Origin: a phage
Sequence record: PQ327946.1
DNA length: 64,000 nucleotides
Strand: one strand, 5' to 3'
The notes beneath the pieces were generated by a model. It did no database searches. It saw only the letters and a program-made list of their open reading frames with translations, and was not told the DNA's origin. Positions 21,733-53,372 of this stretch are shown here, piece after piece; the stretch's first letter is position 1; the number at the start of each line of letters is the position of its first letter. A program made the position numbers and the translations under genes.

Positions 21733-22203
21733 TTAATCATGTTTCCACACCCCATCGGTATTTGACCAAAGTCGCTGATTATCTGATCCTCGCCACATCT
21801 TTTTAGTCGGAAGATTTTTCTCATACTTCCCATCAATAATAACATCAACATATTTAAGCATTTCTAGTTGTTTAATATCTTCAAACTTATATCCTGTCCA
21901 CAACCAAATGCTTTTATTGGGATAAAGATTTTTTACTGTTTGAGCAATGCGATGAATAACATCTCGGTTATCAGGATAGAGAGGATCTCCTCCGGTTATA
22001 GTTAATCCTTCTATATAATCATTATTCAAACATTCAATCAATTGTTCTAGTGTTTCACCAGTGAATGGAATACCATTTCTAGCGTTCCATGTTGATTTAT
22101 TATAACACCCTTCGCATTTATGCAAACAACCTGTAACGAAAAGAACGACCCTGCAACCAGGGCCATTCACAAAATCGCAAGGATAAAATCTATCATAATT
22201 CAT
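21733..22203 (-). CDS. nrdG: Anaerobic ribonucleotide reductase activating protein (radical SAM)
   Basis: 156 aa; CxxxCxxC motif GCLHKCEGC. Confidence 0.9.
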   Translation of the reverse strand: MNYDRFYPCDFVNGPGCRVVLFVTGCLHKCEGCYNKSTWNARNGIPFTGETLEQLIECLNNDYIEGLTITGGDPLYPDNRDVIHRIAQTVKNLYPNKSIWLWTGYKFEDIKQLEMLKYVDVIIDGKYEKNLPTKKMWRGSDNQRLWSNTDGVWKHD

Positions 22204-24017
22204 TGGTGTTTAACCCTATGCATGATTTCTTTATTTTTACCGAGATTAAATCCGCGTTCGTTCGGATTTCCCAAATAACCACATGTTCTTCTTATGGTGT
22301 TCATCTTTTTAGGATCACTTTCTCCACAAACTGAACAAACAAATCCGTTTTCAGTAGGAGTCATTTCATGAGTACTTCCACATGTAAAACATTTATCTAC
22401 TGGCATATTAACACCAAAATAATCTAAATGTTGTGCAGCATAATCCCAGACAGCCTCAAGACCTTTTAAGTTATTTTTCATATCTGGAAGTTCAACATAA
22501 GAAATGTGACCGCCTGTTGCAATGAAATGATATGGGGCTTCGCGAGAAATCTTTTCAAATGGAGTAATATTTTCTTCTACTGAAACGTGGAAACTGTTAG
22601 TGTACCAGCCTTTATCGGTAACATCTTTTACACTTCCATATTTCTCAGTATCAAGTTTACAGAAGCGATAGCACAGGTTTTCAGCAGGAGTAGAATACAG
22701 GCTAAAAGCAAAACCGGTTCTTTCAGTCCACTGCTTAAGACGAGCATTCATTTTAGTTAAAATTTCCTGTCCAATATCACGTCCGACAAGAATATTCAAT
22801 TCGTGAATACCAATGTATCCTAGGGACACTGAACTTCTGCCGTTTTTAAATAACTCAATTATATCGTCATCAGGTTTAAGACGAACCCCGAATGCACCTT
22901 CTTGGTAAAGAATAGGAGCAACAGTAGCTTTAACTCCTTTTAAGGAACTAATTCTGCACATCAATGCTTCAAAACATAAATCCATTCGTTCATTGAATAA
23001 TTCAACAAATTTCTGTTCATTGAACTGTGTTCCAATATAAGAATCTAACGCAATACGAGGAAGATTCAGTGTTACAACACCAAGATTATTACGTCCATCA
23101 AGAATTTCATTACCAGTCGAATCTTTCCATACGCTCAAGAAACTACGACAGCCCATTGGAGAAACAGGAACAGATGAACCAGTGATAGCTTTATTATTCT
23201 TAACTGAAATAATATCAGGATACATTCTTTTGCTTGCACACTCTAGAGCAAGCTGCTTAATATCATAATTCGGATCGTCTTTATAAAGATTAACACCTTC
23301 TTCAACGAACATAACAAGTTTAGGGAAAATAGGAGTTATCCCATCGCGACCAAGACCTTTAATACGATTTTTCAGAATTGCTTTCTGAATCATTCGTTCA
23401 GTCCAGTCAGTTCCAGTACCAAATGTAATTGTCACAAAAGGCGTTTGTCCGTTTGAACTAAAGAGAGTATTTACTTCATATTCATAAGCTTGGAATGCAT
23501 CGTATACGTCTTTTTCTGTTTTAGATTGGGCATAATTCAGCGCATCAGCGATTTGCCATTTTTCTGCATCTTCAATATGTTTTGCGTAGGTGCGTTTAAC
23601 ATAAGGAGAAAGGACTTTATCTACATTCGCAAATGTAGTTCCACCGTATTGATGGGAAGCAACCTGCGCAGTAATTTGTGCCATAATTGCAGTAGCAACA
23701 CCAATCGATTTAGGCGTTTCAATTTGAGCATTGCCTAATTTAAATCCATTCTCAAGCATCCCCTTTAAATCGACTAAACAGCAATTAGTAAATGGAAGAG
23801 CAGGAGAATAATCAATATCATGCATGTGGATAATTCCACTTTCGTGTGCTTTCATAATAAAAGACGGGACCATATTTTTGGCAATGTGCTTAGACACAAT
23901 ACCAGCCATAAGGTCCCGTTGAGTTGGAAAAACACGAGAATCTTTATTAGCATTCTCGTTCAAAAGATCTTTATTAGTTTTATGAATTAATCCTTCAATT
24001 TCTTTTTCAATTTTCAT
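22200..24017 (-). CDS. nrdD: Anaerobic ribonucleoside-triphosphate reductase
   Basis: 605 aa; C-terminal zinc-ribbon cysteines and glycyl radical motif RTCGYLG; uninterrupted. Confidence 0.93.
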   Translation of the reverse strand: MKIEKEIEGLIHKTNKDLLNENANKDSRVFPTQRDLMAGIVSKHIAKNMVPSFIMKAHESGIIHMHDIDYSPALPFTNCCLVDLKGMLENGFKLGNAQIETPKSIGVATAIMAQITAQVASHQYGGTTFANVDKVLSPYVKRTYAKHIEDAEKWQIADALNYAQSKTEKDVYDAFQAYEYEVNTLFSSNGQTPFVTITFGTGTDWTERMIQKAILKNRIKGLGRDGITPIFPKLVMFVEEGVNLYKDDPNYDIKQLALECASKRMYPDIISVKNNKAITGSSVPVSPMGCRSFLSVWKDSTGNEILDGRNNLGVVTLNLPRIALDSYIGTQFNEQKFVELFNERMDLCFEALMCRISSLKGVKATVAPILYQEGAFGVRLKPDDDIIELFKNGRSSVSLGYIGIHELNILVGRDIGQEILTKMNARLKQWTERTGFAFSLYSTPAENLCYRFCKLDTEKYGSVKDVTDKGWYTNSFHVSVEENITPFEKISREAPYHFIATGGHISYVELPDMKNNLKGLEAVWDYAAQHLDYFGVNMPVDKCFTCGSTHEMTPTENGFVCSVCGESDPKKMNTIRRTCGYLGNPNERGFNLGKNKEIMHRVKHQ

Positions 24018-25609: not shown

Positions 25610-25869
25610 TTAAAATATTCTCGCAGTTGGTCAAATCCACCAATATGACTTCCGTCAGGAGCAAACACTTGAGGCATAGTCAATCCGATTTGTGATTCAC
25701 GTCCAAGCTTAACCAGAAGCTCAGCAATTTTCTCATCATCAAAAACACCTTTTTCCGGCATAACATTAATGAATTCGAATGGCTGTTTCTTAACGGTCAG
25801 CAATCGTTTCGCATTATCGCAATAAATGCATTTATGAATAGTAGAGTCATAACCATACACTTTAAACAT
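25606..25869 (-). CDS. nrdC: Glutaredoxin-like protein (T4 thioredoxin NrdC)
   Basis: 87 aa from ATG at 25869; CIYC CxxC motif; matches T4 NrdC. Confidence 0.85.
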   Translation of the reverse strand: MFKVYGYDSTIHKCIYCDNAKRLLTVKKQPFEFINVMPEKGVFDDEKIAELLVKLGRESQIGLTMPQVFAPDGSHIGGFDQLREYFK

Positions 25870-26275
25870 TATTTTTCCTTTCATCGATTAAATATGCAAT
25901 GCCAAATACAATACATGTAATAAAACCTGTGATACAGATAGAAACCAACAACACTGTACCAAAGAACCAAATCAAGTTATCTTTAGTAGTTTGTTTGATA
26001 TCCATCTCACGAATTTCTATAGCTATCGTATCACCTTTATTCAGAAGCGTATAAAACGATGGCGATACACGCCTGTCAAAAACTCGTCCTTGCTCATCTT
26101 TATAGACTGCAATAAATTCTAATTTAGAATATTTTCCTGTAGATTGGCCTGAGATTAATTCCACTACCTCCACAGGAATTACTTTAGTTTCCATGTAAGT
26201 ATTCTGGCTGTTCCAAATGAATGGAATGATGGCAAAAACTAAAGCTGCAATAAAGCAACGAAGGCTATATCTCAT
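25862..26275 (-). CDS. Membrane protein
   Basis: 137 aa with N- and C-terminal hydrophobic helices. Confidence 0.5.
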   Translation of the reverse strand: MRYSLRCFIAALVFAIIPFIWNSQNTYMETKVIPVEVVELISGQSTGKYSKLEFIAVYKDEQGRVFDRRVSPSFYTLLNKGDTIAIEIREMDIKQTTKDNLIWFFGTVLLVSICITGFITCIVFGIAYLIDERKNNV

Positions 26276-26580
26276 TATAATGTTCTCTCAAATTTGTGGA
26301 AGCATTTACGGCATTTCAATTTCAAGTTATCAGTGGTCCAGTTAACCAGTTGGACTTGGATAGTTCCACATTCCGGACATGGATGTTTTGCTGCCGATTT
26401 GGCAGCATTTTCACGTCGTTCAACCATTTTCATTATTTCGTTCCATGCCGGAGGAACGAACTCTTCTTCACCGTGGATTTTATCTCGCTGAACAAATTCA
26501 ATCTTTGAACTATCGTCAATAAACTTAACCAAGCCATGATTAGTGCTCATATCAATATCCTCTAAAAGACGTAGTTTCAT
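26275..26580 (-). CDS. Zinc-ribbon protein
   Basis: 101 aa; CPECG ... CRKC pairs. Confidence 0.5.
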   Translation of the reverse strand: MKLRLLEDIDMSTNHGLVKFIDDSSKIEFVQRDKIHGEEEFVPPAWNEIMKMVERRENAAKSAAKHPCPECGTIQVQLVNWTTDNLKLKCRKCFHKFERTL

Positions 26581-27524
26581 TATAACACCTCAATGGCATT
26601 TCGTAAGCCATCCGCTTTCGCATTCAGAGCTTTTAACGATTTAGTTTGTTCTGCAATCTGGGCTTCGACTTCTTTCAGACGAGATTTGAGATATTCGCGT
26701 TCTTCTCTTAAGTTATCAACTTTTTCTGCTTTAGGCTCTTTAATAGGCTTATACTCATTAGGGTTCTTCAACTTAATTTGAATGCGAGAACTGTATAACA
26801 TTGAACCGTTATCTTCGGTTTCGCTGAACATTTCAACAACATCCATAGTCTGTAATATCATACGAAGTTTATAAGACAGCGAACTAACGGTTTTGTTGCG
26901 CTTATTAATTTCTTCGGCTTTCATGGTACCGAGATTACGTGAGTAGTAATAAGGAACCTGGATATCAATTGACAATGATGCGTTACCATTACCAGTTGGT
27001 TTGAATACTGCAGTAACCCAATCTTTAACATGAACTTTATTTGTACGACCGTCGCCGCCTGTGAATAATTTACGTGAATGTTTAAAAAGCATATTCACTT
27101 GGTTATTGAATTCACAAGCAAATTTATCAGCAAATTTAGTTTCAGGAATGGTAGATAACCAATCAGCTAAATAGGTCTTTTTAACATCGTTAACAATAGT
27201 AAATTCAACCAAATCGGTTATAGATGTCGCAGTTTTAATGAATCTCGGCTTCATAAAGTTTTTAATGTTATCGCGAGCTACAGTAGAAGATAACATACGA
27301 GAACGTTTAAACCATTGAAGCAAATTGCCCAACGAATGAGAATAAGCGTTCTGTGTATCTTTACAGATATGATTTTCTTGACCTGTGTATGTACCAAAAT
27401 CGCGAAGAATACCACTTACTACAACTCGGTGTGGAACATCAAATCCTAATGAACCGGAAGCACGTTGGGCATGAACGTTAGCGATAAGACCTGCAAAATA
27501 ATCAACATAATGTGAACGTGTCAT
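26580..27524 (-). CDS. Hypothetical protein with C-terminal coiled coil
   Basis: 314 aa ORF; ATG at 27524 with SD GAGG. Confidence 0.55.
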   Translation of the reverse strand: MTRSHYVDYFAGLIANVHAQRASGSLGFDVPHRVVVSGILRDFGTYTGQENHICKDTQNAYSHSLGNLLQWFKRSRMLSSTVARDNIKNFMKPRFIKTATSITDLVEFTIVNDVKKTYLADWLSTIPETKFADKFACEFNNQVNMLFKHSRKLFTGGDGRTNKVHVKDWVTAVFKPTGNGNASLSIDIQVPYYYSRNLGTMKAEEINKRNKTVSSLSYKLRMILQTMDVVEMFSETEDNGSMLYSSRIQIKLKNPNEYKPIKEPKAEKVDNLREEREYLKSRLKEVEAQIAEQTKSLKALNAKADGLRNAIEVL

Positions 27525-27552
27525 AATATTTTCCTCTCGTTAAGATAGAAAG

Positions 27553-27581
27553 ATTATACTCCAACCATCCTTGGTTGTAAA
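27553..27581 (-). promoter_or_regulatory. Early promoter TTTACA-N17-TATAAT with hairpin in spacer
   Basis: Minus strand TTTACA, 17-nt spacer with CAACCA/TGGTTG stem, TATAAT; 27 nt identical to 28546..28572. Confidence 0.6.
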
Positions 27582-27586
27582 CTGAT

Positions 27587-28519
27587 TTATGATTTTAATG
27601 CATTCATTGCGTTAAAAAGTTTAGAGTACTGCAACTGGAGCTTGGTAACTACTTGTTGAGCATCACGAAGCTTAGCTTGTGCTTTGTCAAGTTCAACAGA
27701 CAGTTGGTCCACAGTGCCTTTGATTTGATTATAATAGTAATCTTCGGCAGGAAGAAGACCGTTAGAGATTTCCAGTTTAGTCGACGGTGTGCCGTTAAAC
27801 ATAACAGGTTGTGCTGAAGCTGCATTAATCTTACCGATAGTTGGGGCGACAATAATTGACGCTTCGAACGTTGCATTTTCCTTTTTAAGATTTTGATAGT
27901 ATTCAGAGTCTTTGTGCCACCATGGCGCAGGAACCTTTTTACCAATAGATACACGAGCCTGGATAGCGATATGGCCCTTATTCTTGATAGGGTTGATAAT
28001 ATTAAGCTCACGAGAATAAATTGCTTTAATCTGGTGAATATTATCACCTAGCACTTCCAACGCTTGGTGGAATACACGAGCAACGTTATCATTCTTAGGT
28101 TTATACGTAAGAGTGAACTCGTTCTCACTGATAACCATGATTTCCAACTTATCGTAAGTATATTTCAAATGTTTCATGTTAATTGCTTGAGGACGAATAC
28201 GAGAAGCAATGGCCATCAGATTGTTAAGGTTATTCCGGAACTGCTTAGCGAAATATTGTCCTTCATCGCCAATACAAAAATTACGAAGTTTCTGTTTGGC
28301 TAATAAACGGCTGAACTCACCATTTTTAATGAACTCTTTAACGGGTGTGTTAGTAACGCATTCAAATTGAGTAAACTTACGAGAAGTAATCCCATAATAT
28401 GAACAGATTTCCTCAATCTCTTCAGGAGTCTTTACAGGCATACGGATAGGATTAGGACCTGGGGTATATGCGTTCGAGGTAAATTCTTTGATAAGTTCTC
28501 TACGTGTAATAGAAGCCAT
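27587..28519 (-). CDS. Hypothetical protein with C-terminal coiled coil
   Basis: 310 aa ORF. Confidence 0.55.
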   Translation of the reverse strand: MASITRRELIKEFTSNAYTPGPNPIRMPVKTPEEIEEICSYYGITSRKFTQFECVTNTPVKEFIKNGEFSRLLAKQKLRNFCIGDEGQYFAKQFRNNLNNLMAIASRIRPQAINMKHLKYTYDKLEIMVISENEFTLTYKPKNDNVARVFHQALEVLGDNIHQIKAIYSRELNIINPIKNKGHIAIQARVSIGKKVPAPWWHKDSEYYQNLKKENATFEASIIVAPTIGKINAASAQPVMFNGTPSTKLEISNGLLPAEDYYYNQIKGTVDQLSVELDKAQAKLRDAQQVVTKLQLQYSKLFNAMNALKS

Positions 28520-28545
28520 TTTATATTCCTCATGTTGAAAAATTT

Positions 28546-28574
28546 ATTATACTCCAACCATCCTTGGTTGTACA
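28546..28574 (-). promoter_or_regulatory. Early promoter TGTACA-N17-TATAAT with hairpin in spacer
   Basis: Same spacer and -10 block as 27553..27581. Confidence 0.55.
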
Positions 28575-29570
28575 TCATTCCTTAAGAAGTTTTACTACTT
28601 GAATAAGATTAGCTCGTTCTGTTTTATTTTTACCGTTTAAGCCTGCTAATCGTGAGATTTCATCATCAGTCTGTTGAATAGTTACATTAAGTTCGTTAAT
28701 CAAAGCTTCAAAGTATTTGATTTGCTCAGCATGTTTTGATTCAAATTTTTGAACCGGAATAACGTCTTGGTTTAGTTCATCAATAAGGTCTTTAAGAGCA
28801 TCTTCTTGGTTGATATCATATTCAACTTCTTTTATTTCTTCAACGAGCTCGTCTTTATATCTAACGTCTTTTAGTCCTGGTGCTGGTCCTGAAATCTCTT
28901 CTTTAAGAGTACAAACATATCCAATACGGTATCCAATACCGTCTCGCTTGATAACAACTTCGTCAATAAATCCACAATGTTTAAGACCGGAGCCGATTAG
29001 GTCAAAATATCCTTGACGTCGTCCTTCAAACGTTACACGAACTACTAAGACAGTTTTACCTGCAACCTTTTGAAGCTCACATTTATAAAAGTCTGTTGAA
29101 CCTGAATAACGTGGATGAGTTTTAAAGTTCATCTGACGATCTAGGCCCATTTGTAAGCGTGCTGATACGGCCATAAAACGTGTTTGGTTCTCGTTAAGAT
29201 GAGCAACAATCCATTTCAAAGGCATTTTACACTGTTCACGACCGAACAAATCAGTACGTCCTAGATTACGCAGGATGTTGTTAGAGTTAATCATCGACAG
29301 AACGTTAAGTTTATTCAGCGCGCTGAAGATTCCATCGGCCATTGATTTTCCGTAACCTTTACACGCTTTAATAAGCGCTCGCGGTAGATTAGTATAGATT
29401 TCAGACGGCATATGAAAATCAAATTTACTAGTCAGTAATTGATGAACTTGGATAGCAATTTGCTCATAATTAAGTGCTCTGCGATCATTATGGTCTTTAA
29501 ACCACACTTTAATCTGTGAAGCACATAAACCGTTAATTTCATGTTTTACCGCATCAGATGTAATGCTCAT
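28575..29570 (-). CDS. Hypothetical protein with C-terminal coiled coil
   Basis: 331 aa ORF. Confidence 0.55.
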   Translation of the reverse strand: MSITSDAVKHEINGLCASQIKVWFKDHNDRRALNYEQIAIQVHQLLTSKFDFHMPSEIYTNLPRALIKACKGYGKSMADGIFSALNKLNVLSMINSNNILRNLGRTDLFGREQCKMPLKWIVAHLNENQTRFMAVSARLQMGLDRQMNFKTHPRYSGSTDFYKCELQKVAGKTVLVVRVTFEGRRQGYFDLIGSGLKHCGFIDEVVIKRDGIGYRIGYVCTLKEEISGPAPGLKDVRYKDELVEEIKEVEYDINQEDALKDLIDELNQDVIPVQKFESKHAEQIKYFEALINELNVTIQQTDDEISRLAGLNGKNKTERANLIQVVKLLKE

Positions 29571-29632
29571 AACTATTTCCTCAGATTGAATTGGAACTCA
29601 AAACCATTATAACCCGTCCTTGGGTAAAGCGT

Positions 29633-30160
29633 TTATGCGTGAACCGTCTTTAAACGTTCTTCAAATTTCCGAAGAGTACTAATACGTTCTGCTTTCTGTT
29701 TTGTATAGTTTGCAATACGTTCTGAAGTGAGAGCGTATCGTTCGTTTACTGTTTCTTTCATGAAGTCAGGGATTTCACGAGAAGCTTTAATTTCATCAAA
29801 CTTATCGAGTACTGCCTGGTCTTCAGCGATTAAATTTTCGTACATCTCGATATCTTTCTTGATAAACTCGATATCTTCCTGGGTTACTTTGGATAAACGA
29901 GATGCTTTATCCTTTTTGTACTGCTCGTTAGTTTCACGAGACCAGAATAATGTACGTTTTTTGTTAGTGTTTTTGTAGACTTCCACAATTCCAACTGAAT
30001 CGATGATAGCAATCCAATTCCAGCGAGATTTGAAAATCTGACCTCCGTCCACGGTAATCTCGTTACCATAAGCAACGTCATTAAAGAACTTGCTTTGTGC
30101 TTCAGATTTAAATTTACCGTCGTTATAATTTACCAGGTTGAAAATATCTTTAGCGTTCAT
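29633..30160 (-). CDS. Hypothetical protein
   Basis: 175 aa ORF. Confidence 0.5.
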   Translation of the reverse strand: MNAKDIFNLVNYNDGKFKSEAQSKFFNDVAYGNEITVDGGQIFKSRWNWIAIIDSVGIVEVYKNTNKKRTLFWSRETNEQYKKDKASRLSKVTQEDIEFIKKDIEMYENLIAEDQAVLDKFDEIKASREIPDFMKETVNERYALTSERIANYTKQKAERISTLRKFEERLKTVHA

Positions 30161-30187
30161 GTTTTACCTCCAGTAGTTGATAGGTCT

Positions 30188-30216
30188 ATAATAACATAAC
30201 CATAGACCTTGTAAAC
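30188..30216 (-). promoter_or_regulatory. Early promoter GTTTAC-N17-TATTAT within inverted repeat
   Basis: Minus strand GTTTAC, 17 nt, TATTAT; AGGTCTAT/ATAGACCT inverted repeat. Confidence 0.5.
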
Positions 30217-30218
30217 AA

Positions 30219-30506
30219 CTAAAAGAAACTTTTTTCGGTATTTTTTCCACTGAACCAAACCGATTTCGGAATTTTCTGTAATTTTTCAGATTTAAGTTTC
30301 TCTTCCTGTTCTTTCTTATATGCATCCTTGTCGTACTGGAACAACTCTAAGGCATTCTTTTGTAGACGGTCTAAGGTAATTAAGGCTTTAGTTTTTCCTT
30401 TCAAGGAAGAGTCCTGGCGAACCTCCTCGCTATATTGCATCGTAGAACTAACCATACGATGAGCATAGAGTTCTACTGCGGCTTTAATTTTTTGCATAAA
30501 ATCCAT
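30219..30506 (-). CDS. Hypothetical protein
   Basis: 95 aa ORF. Confidence 0.4.
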   Translation of the reverse strand: MDFMQKIKAAVELYAHRMVSSTMQYSEEVRQDSSLKGKTKALITLDRLQKNALELFQYDKDAYKKEQEEKLKSEKLQKIPKSVWFSGKNTEKSFF

Positions 30507-31646: not shown

Positions 31647-31663
31647 TTCGTTTCGATAGGTCT

Positions 31664-31691
31664 ATAATAACATATCCTAAAAGCATGTACA
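31664..31691 (-). promoter_or_regulatory. Early promoter-like element (TGTACA-N16-TATTAT)
   Basis: Minus strand TGTACA, 16 nt, TATTAT upstream of ATPase gene. Confidence 0.4.
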
Positions 31692-31720
31692 CCACTTTTT
31701 AAAAATATTTTATCCCCCTA

Positions 31721-52686: not shown

Positions 52687-53372
<686 letters not shown>

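Follow-up and report, generated by a model that had tools for sequence, protein, structure and literature searches.

Three nrdC.x-family genes behind predicted promoter-hairpin elements, one of them a repeat-flanked cassette, in an RB69/JS09-like T-even phage

Within a 64,000-nt stretch of phage DNA (sequence record PQ327946.1; the whole stretch is called the window below), we investigated three consecutive genes in the nrdC neighbourhood, named w314, w310 and w331 after the number of amino acids (aa) they encode, together with a 27-nt block preceding two of them. The best explanation, to which we assign a probability of roughly 0.7, is that this part of the genome is a hyperplastic accessory region in which three single-gene units with a common protein plan lie behind promoter-hairpins of the type known as PeSL (composite early-promoter/stem-loop cassettes), w310 being a repeat-flanked cassette and all three proteins probably serving in counter-defence. 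The transcription units would be those of nrdC.3 and of one gene each from the nrdC.5 family (DUF7235) and the nrdC.6 family, two of them behind a sigma-70 early promoter with hairpin and one behind a counterpart of the T4 promoter PnrdC.7. Homologous recombination between the 27-nt promoter cores would remove or insert the nrdC.5-family gene as a cassette, a mechanism that we take over from the PeSL literature. The proteins would act as early counter-defence factors, with a variable head that binds host immune proteins and a tail that oligomerises.

An earlier, sequence-only reading of the window had described three consecutive open reading frames (ORFs) of 310–330 aa. All three are real and lie on the minus strand (Table 1), each with a GAGG Shine-Dalgarno sequence 8–9 nt upstream. 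The w314 protein was 55% identical to T4 NrdC.3 over the full length of 314 aa (BLASTP, E 5e-119) and matched phrog_1435, and all its homologues carried the precomputed Pfam annotation PF26897. The next gene is an nrdC.2 homologue, and we assign w314 as the NrdC.3 orthologue in the syntenic position next to nrdC.2. The w310 protein matched the Pfam model DUF7235 with 368.8 bits (cutoff 30), its residues 15–309 covering model positions 1–307 of 307, and T4 NrdC.5 matched the same model over its full length (420.6 bits, E 5e-126). By this match w310 is a member of the DUF7235/NrdC.5 family; it is 91% identical to an RB69 protein annotated as NrdC.5 and only 24–30% to T4 NrdC.5. For w331, phmmer gave an E value of 1e-33 with full-length, 295-aa NrdC.6 homologues and of 9e-20 with the truncated NrdC.6 of T4. 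It also matched phrog_2257 and carried the precomputed Pfam annotation PF26899. The gene adjoins a homologue of nrdC.8 (83% to T4 nrdC.8), and by these matches it is an NrdC.6-family member in the position next to nrdC.8. Synteny with the T4 nrdC.x genes, which the sequence-only reading had named as a check, gave nrdC.3, nrdC.5 and nrdC.6 as the counterparts; NrdC.4 was not among the window genes. NrdC.3 was found in 654 phage records and w310-type proteins in 133, and a representative search of 1.84 billion proteins returned six NrdC.6 representatives. A search for related loci with the NrdC.3 alignment gave seven loci. The NrdC.3, NrdC.5 and NrdC.6 families are confined to T-even coliphages. 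Besides DUF7235, sequence searches against Pfam, NCBIfam and PDB gave no meaningful domain, no enzymatic domain and no solved relative.

Table 1 Predicted genes, promoter elements and coiled-coil segment in the nrdC neighbourhood of the window.
Feature	Position	Strand	Description
w314	26580..27524	-	314 aa; assigned as T4 nrdC.3 orthologue; variable head and conserved C-terminal helix
w310	27587..28519	-	310 aa; NrdC.5 family, DUF7235; bracketed by both 27-nt direct repeats
w331	28575..29570	-	331 aa; NrdC.6-family gene
w331 C-terminal heptad segment	aa 281-331, ~nt 28578-28730	-	heptad pattern
Early-type sigma-70 promoter, copy 1 (predicted)	27553..27581	-	TTTACA-17-TATAAT; hairpin CAACC-AAGGAT-GGTTG at 27562-27577 in the spacer, then GGAG
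Early-type sigma-70 promoter, copy 2 (predicted)	28546..28574	-	TGTACA-17-TATAAT; hairpin at 28555-28570
Middle-promoter-like element (predicted)	29606..29631	-	MotA-box-like cGCTTTA at 29631-29625, 13-nt spacer, -10 TATAAT at 29611-29606

The 27-nt sequence TACAACCAAGGATGGTTGGAGTATAAT occurs as two exact copies, at 27553–27579 and 28546–28572, in line with the identical block noticed from the sequence. These were the only two matches with up to three mismatches in the window (expected by chance 0.00, 100 shuffles), and the DNA flanking the two copies is unrelated to each other. In close relatives the block is identical or differs by 1 nt. Its features are those of an early promoter of sigma-70 type whose spacer holds a hairpin. 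The two copies fit the consensus at 11/12 (TTTACA-17-TATAAT) and 10/12 positions (TGTACA-17-TATAAT) and are the best, or among the best, sigma-70 matches at 24–34 kb, where the total number of consensus matches is not above chance. The idea that the genes stand behind cloned promoters held for the two that the conserved block precedes, but w331 lies behind a related, putatively MotA-type element instead.

The element upstream of w331 has the hairpin ACCC-AAGGAC-GGGT at 29612–29625 in its spacer. Compared with the MotA box TGCTTtA, which lies ~12 nt before a TAnnnT -10, it carries C for T at the first position and has a spacer of 13 nt. In T4 we recognized a counterpart, cGCTTTA-12-TATAAT with the hairpin TTATACC-AAGGAT-GGTATAA. 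Only 7 nt separate the end of its TATAAT from the start site published for PnrdC.7, a MotA-dependent middle promoter (position 53325; Hinton 2010 Table 1, PMC2988021). The w331 gene would therefore stand behind a middle-type promoter and not behind a copy of the early block, and we regard its upstream element as the putative counterpart of PnrdC.7.

The two 27-nt copies are direct repeats, 993 bp apart, and bracket w310. The expected product of recombination between them, the end of w331 joined through one block to the start of w314, was assembled as a synthetic junction of 327 nt. Megablast matched it contiguously, at 95–99% identity, to 21 phage records. Verification in phage F2 (NC_054913.1) showed nrdC.3 directly behind the 331-aa gene, joined to it by ...AAGGAATGATG-TACAACCAAGGATGGTTGGAGTATAAT-CTTTCTATCTTAACGAGAGG..., the very sequence that had been expected. 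Because the 21 records carry the predicted one-block junction, the presence or absence of the nrdC.5-family gene maps to the 27-nt repeats. A close relative carries a third exact copy of the block downstream of dexA, in front of a 164-aa gene; ~50 nt of it are shared with the block that precedes nrdC.3, and the gene that comes next at this site has a CATCC variant in front of it. The proposal of a shuffled module stood for w310, by its presence or absence exactly at the repeats and by the third block copy.

PeSLs (promoter-early stem-loops), of which a variant with a MotA box exists, are concentrated in the hyperplastic regions of T4-like genomes, where they are proposed to act in the shuffling of genes and the excision of mini-circles (PMC2839356, PMC4122927). 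By their sequence, the window blocks are PeSL-like promoter/stem-loop cassettes and thus a known kind of element. According to a figure legend in PMC4122927, degraded PeSLs are located at ~43–51 kb in phage PST. The PST genome is 84% identical to T4, so these probably cover the same nrdC neighbourhood. The dexA-dda region of relatives (locus L011, 1341–2866; locus L012, 75–569) contains, downstream of dexA, a tandem array of three paralogous genes of 164, 165 and 139 aa, which share the C-terminal motif W(V/I)EDG...N(V/I)V..G.F.VV. In front of two of them, the first and the second, lies the same promoter-hairpin cassette, in the CAACC and the CATCC version.

Whether the three proteins are related depended on the sensitivity of the comparison. 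Pairwise BLASTP among w314, w310 and w331 gave no match, and the shallow alignments used initially yielded nothing significant with hhalign (E 0.016–0.28). Both results would suit three unrelated, adjacent ORFans with convergent coiled-coil tails and with promoters made alike by selection for the early consensus, without duplication and without cassettes; likewise, Pfam and PHROGs hold three separate families, and coiled coils are inherently alike in composition. Later profiles were built with family members from several T-even clades and compared locally. The NrdC.3 and NrdC.4 profiles found each other by hmmsearch (E 6e-9 and 1e-8, database of 480 ORFs) and by hhalign (E 3e-6 over 236 columns). 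To exclude coiled-coil composition, the C-terminal 55 residues were cut and the heads alone compared by hhalign, with column-permuted controls. NrdC.3 and NrdC.4 heads still aligned with a score of 53 (z 15). The combined NrdC.3 and NrdC.4 profile aligned with NrdC.5 at a score of 40.4 (E 3.4e-5, z 9.8), which none of 100 column-permuted controls reached (mean 13.9, sd 2.7, maximum 22.8). With added clades, the NrdC.4 and NrdC.5 heads scored 37.2 over 163 columns (z 11.5); over both comparisons the link of NrdC.3/4 to NrdC.5 stands at E ~1e-4 and z 10–11.5. Cross-family reversed-profile controls scored 14–18. The aligned core consists of a helix followed by strands (FACEFNNQVNMLFKHSRKLF...VTAVFKPTGNGNASL in w314, FAKQFRNNLNNLMAIASRIR...FTLTYKPKNDNVARV in w310), and the order of secondary structures is alike in the low-confidence AlphaFold2 models of both proteins. 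The tails of NrdC.3, NrdC.4 and NrdC.5 scored best when flush at the C-terminus, above registers shifted by +/-7 or +/-14 residues (e.g., 50 vs 17 and 23).

The profile links between heads, far above permuted and reversed controls, and the C-terminus-anchored register of the tails speak against three unrelated genes. So do the identical 27 nt, which include a spacer free of consensus constraint and have sharp boundaries, and the natural deletion junction exactly at the repeats. We therefore consider the unrelated-gene explanation improbable. The profile comparisons identify w314 and w310 as remote paralogues, linked through NrdC.4. NrdC.6 gave no significant match with single families (z 1.2–3.3). 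The merged NrdC.3/4/5 profile matched it with E 0.006 over 94 collinear columns (z 5.4, 0/60 controls as high), and with E 5e-4 when the tails were included. These values are suggestive, and make w331 a probable but unproven, more distant member of the superfamily. The duplicated module of the sequence-only reading thus holds for w314 and w310 by profile comparison, despite the empty BLASTP result, and is only suggestive for w331; the block, for its part, is conserved. In other clades the order is nrdC.8, NrdC.6, NrdC.5, NrdC.4 and nrdC.2, without NrdC.3. A three-gene array with one member of NrdC.3/4 type appears to be the common state, T4 having an extra paralogue.

The proteins share a common plan, a fast-diverging head of ~250 aa followed by a better conserved C-terminal heptad helix of ~45 aa. 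AlphaFold2 predicted one long terminal helix in w314 (residues 273–313, ~nt 26583–26708) and one in w310 (residues 258–309, ~nt 27590–27748). With a crude heptad score the top segment was C-terminal in all three proteins (w314 265–314, w310 258–310, w331 281–311), and no C-terminal segment was found in the control neighbours NrdC.10 and NrdC.11. In w331 the segment is interrupted by a Gly-containing break (AGLNGKN). The tails are thus predicted coiled coils by helix and heptad pattern, in agreement with what had been noticed from the sequence. All four families, NrdC.3 to NrdC.6, have the common C-terminal ending L-x-x-[AVI]-[ILMV]-x-[VLA]-[LI]-[K/N]. Between this phage and T4-type phages, tails were more conserved than heads in each of the three families (64 vs 54%, 38 vs 24% and 60 vs 26%). 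The heads diverge strongly while the neighbours nrdC.8, nrdC.10 and nrdC.11 keep 78–92% identity to T4. Similar N-terminal starts, the remaining likeness claimed earlier, were recognized in w314 (MTRSHYVDYF) and w310 (MASITRRELIKEF), as well as in T4 NrdC.3, NrdC.4 and NrdC.5, which share the pattern M(K)TRxxYI, but the likeness of w331 is weak.

With respect to function, the T4 nrdC.5 gene, described as an early gene, restores the infection of a T4 deletion mutant on cells with Dsr1, a SIR2-type defence (Srikant et al. 2022, PMC9391042). The label "unknown function" given from the sequence is therefore out of date for the NrdC.5 family. T6 gp49.2 inhibits OLD (PMC13096335) and T4 nrdC.1 inhibits Septu (bioRxiv 10.1101/2025.11.20.689424). 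Because nrdC.5, gp49.2 and nrdC.1 counter Dsr1, OLD and Septu, the neighbourhood behaves as an anti-defence island, and a counter-defence function of the three proteins is probable by analogy. The nrdC.x genes are also dispensable and decay often, as seen from three cases. Phage ACG-C40 (locus L009, 5805–6213) has lost nrdC.4 together with most of nrdC.5 and nrdC.3 in a natural deletion, so that 71 initial codons of nrdC.5 are now fused to ~70 terminal codons of nrdC.3. In an IMG/VR phage (locus L005) nrdC.4 is broken into two ORFs, one of 193 aa and one of 158 aa. The annotated T4 nrdC.6 (275 aa) appears frameshifted just before the C-terminal helix (locus L001 = NC_000866, 7997–8200, minus strand): its conserved tail ...ISIQQYDDEIFRLSGLSSKAKSEREKLIKIVDLLKS* can be read in a different frame within the "intergenic" 70 nt that precede nrdC.5, and other T4-type phages have an intact nrdC.6 of 295 aa.

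Many phage records in GenBank call the nrdC.3, nrdC.5 and nrdC.6 homologues "thioredoxin". No thioredoxin domain was detectable in these homologues by the Pfam, NCBIfam and PDB searches, and we rejected a thioredoxin-like identity because no such domain is present; the labels are apparently an annotation carry-over from the nrdC.x gene names. The label, together with the nrdC neighbourhood, would fit an alternative in which the three proteins form one complex through their similar C-terminal helices and act in nucleotide or redox metabolism. Adjacent genes of similar size, a common terminal motif and conserved tails would be expected of such a complex. We hold it to be very unlikely, as the searches gave neither a thioredoxin nor an enzymatic domain, the middle gene alone is absent in 21 otherwise similar phages, NrdC.4 replaces NrdC.3 in other clades, and T4 nrdC.5 alone restores infection on Dsr1 cells (PMC9391042).

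The hairpin inside the promoters has a recurrent design, a stem of 4–8 bp and an AAGGA(T/C) loop, followed by (GGAG)TATAAT. It was found in both 27-nt promoters, upstream of w331, and upstream of T4 nrdC.3, nrdC.4 and nrdC.7, and nowhere else in the 64-kb window or in a 16-kb T4 segment. The stem versions CAACC, ACCC, AGCC, CCAC and TTATACC all pair. MAFFT did not bring the intergenic elements into register, and an alignment anchored on the loop was used instead. In this alignment 96% of the cells were paired and three of five pairs had compensatory double changes; 0/500 shuffles reached the observed score, and sliding the partner columns abolished pairing. In other T-even clades, two further stems precede NrdC.4-like genes: CATCC/GGATG and, with one U.G wobble, CTTCC/GGAGG. 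Each hairpin lies 4–11 nt past the stop codon of the upstream gene and before the start site of its own promoter, and its RNA form would therefore occur only in read-through transcripts. RNA folding of six intergenic elements placed the hairpin in the minimum-free-energy structure, at -5 to -9 kcal/mol. Hairpins in these six elements were no more stable than shuffles (z-scores not significant) and had no U-tract. A strong intrinsic terminator was rejected on account of these weak energies and the missing U-tract. No Rfam match was found at 25.5–31 kb.

In five element versions GGAG stands directly after the hairpin, as GGAGTATAAT, or as GGAGTATAAA upstream of T4 nrdC.3. It adjoins the -10 at 27553–27561 and at 28546–28554, and the sigma-70 consensus has no need for it. 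The T4 endoribonuclease RegB recognises this tetranucleotide and might cut read-through RNA there. On an alternative reading, the functional core of the element is the hairpin, acting at the RNA level as a 3'-end stabiliser, an attenuator or a processing signal (e.g., for RegB at GGAG), the promoter identity and the cassette indel being side effects. The loop, conserved as AAGGAU/AAGGAC while the stems covary, would agree with such a role, as would the U.G wobble version, which pairs only in sense-strand RNA, the constant location between stop codon and start site, and the retention of GGAGTATAAT in the five versions. In addition, PeSL stem-loops of RB49 and phi1 were shown to terminate transcription (PMC2839356). 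The low predicted stability, no better than shuffles, the missing U-tract and Rfam match, and the three versions from which GGAG is absent weigh on the other side. We rate this RNA-level alternative as conceivable, if tentative; it concerns only what the hairpin does and leaves room for the repeat-flanked cassette and the PeSL-type promoters preferred here.

Several points weigh against our preferred explanation of single-gene units, a w310 cassette and counter-defence. The repeats, at 27 nt, fall below the length of homology that is commonly given for T4 to recombine efficiently, and the window promoters are consensus matches only. Hairpin covariation is based on only five to seven distinct versions, with the structure derived from the same sequences, and the hairpins are no more stable than shuffles, as said above. 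The AlphaFold2 models are of low confidence overall, with a predicted local distance difference test (pLDDT) of 56.8 for w314 and 40.2 for w310, and give no fold-level confirmation. Because these models are poor, Foldseek with the w314 model against BFVD returned only its own family plus noise. Among the profile comparisons, the hhalign probabilities for the NrdC.5 links are only ~50%, the link of NrdC.6 to the other families is weak, and a self-reversed NrdC.4 control scored 39, showing that local symmetry can yield such scores; we treat the latter as a mirror-symmetry artefact. For function, the experimental results cover NrdC.5 and neither NrdC.3 nor NrdC.6, and w310 is only 24–30% identical to the assayed T4 protein, so its target may differ.

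The surroundings of the three genes identify the window as part of an RB69/JS09-like T-even phage, as judged from nucleotide matches. The 4 kb at 26200–30200 had 96–98% identity with phages of the RB69/JS09 group (vB_EcoM_JQD51, phi25-307 and JS09, infecting Escherichia/Shigella), and weaker matches in ~480 further T-even phages. All genes of this region are on the minus strand. Gene order was assigned by comparison with the T4 record NC_000866 and by BLASTP. In the direction of transcription it starts with nrdC.11 (92% to T4), nrdC.10 (78%), nrdC.9 and nrdC.8 (83%), continues with the ORFs of 331, 310 and 314 aa and nrdC.2 (51% to T4), and leads through an nrdC.7-like gene to nrdC, with gene 49 and nrdD farther on. 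Synteny with T4 thus bore out the earlier placement between nrdC and tk. We read the stretch as belonging to the hyperplastic region of accessory genes that follows nrdC downstream.

The nrdC.7-like gene (25862–26275) encodes a membrane protein with 41% identity to T4 NrdC.7 and lies between nrdC and nrdC.2, the slot of nrdC.1 in T4. No homologue of nrdC.1, the anti-Septu gene of T4, was seen among the ORFs compared in the nrdC neighbourhood. The nrdD gene (22200–24017) is one uninterrupted ORF of 605 aa; in T4 it is split by an intron carrying I-TevII. A second promoter-like repeat pair was found upstream of nrdC.8 and nrdC.10 (30179–30235 and 31655–31711), with 74% identity over 57 nt and an exact 20-nt core, GATAGGTCTATAATAACATA (plus strand). 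T4 has an analogous repeat pair (TGGTACTATACAACTATCAACT) upstream of the same two genes.

The sequence link joins three or four "orphan" families in one superfamily with head and tail, giving a rationale to test NrdC.3, NrdC.4 and NrdC.6 for counter-defence. The indel of w310 is a clean natural case of an anti-defence-family gene whose gain or loss falls exactly on a pair of 27-nt promoter repeats, and supports PeSL shuffling in a further T-even lineage. A distinctive hairpin, with conserved loop and covarying stem, is located inside the promoters. The "thioredoxin" labels in many records serve as a warning of annotation carry-over. A more far-reaching view, which we put forward as doubtful, would make NrdC.3, NrdC.4, NrdC.5 and NrdC.6 one diversifying counter-defence superfamily with a hypervariable, target-binding head on a conserved coiled-coil tail, each family or allele tuned to its own immune protein, Dsr1 being the first known target, and traded between T-even phages as single-gene cassettes at promoter-embedded hairpin repeats. 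The AGGA hairpin would then be more than a weak terminator, namely a dedicated RNA or DNA signal of the cassettes.

The T4 nrdC.x ORFs and the PeSL cassettes have been catalogued before, as has the anti-Dsr1 role of nrdC.5, and the region is no new kind of system. New in detail are the remote paralogy, the promoter-embedded hairpin with conserved loop, and the exact natural cassette indel. PnrdC.7 of T4 and the element in front of w331 have in common the box cGCTTTA, a 12–13-nt spacer with AAGGA hairpin, TATAATGG and the location after the nrdC.8 stop codon. The T4 promoter drives nrdC.7 and then nrdC.6, whereas here nrdC.7 is relocated and the element would drive the nrdC.6-family gene directly.

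Like the PeSLs described previously (Arbiol et al. 2010, PMC2839356; Comeau et al. 2014, PMC4122927), the window elements are small and intergenic, combine a sigma-70-type early promoter (TTTACW-N17-TAYWAT, T4/PST type) with a stem-loop, and are genome-internal repeats in hyperplastic regions beside ORFans. Direct repeats around single genes and indels at the repeats are also shared, and a MotA-box version (PmSL) has been described. The stem-loop here lies inside the spacer, after the -35 or MotA box but ahead of the -10, whereas that of the described PeSLs lies upstream of the -35. Its loop is conserved as AAGGA(U/C), while the described stems are G/C-rich or of the type AGNA...TCNT.

As for the proteins, w310 differs from T4 NrdC.5 in its 24–30% identity and in having a predicted promoter of its own, which the T4 gene does not have. 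Both share the same full-length Pfam model, the position in the array, and the plan of head and C-terminal helix. Compared with other anti-defence islands and paralogue arrays of T-even phages (the internal protein loci, dmd-tifA-adfA and pin-49.2-nrdC.1), the nrdC.x array differs in that experimental support covers the NrdC.5 family only and in its plan of head and coiled coil, which is not described for those islands. In common with them, it consists of dispensable, fast-evolving early genes, several with proven counter-defence, that are frequently gained, lost or decayed between close relatives.

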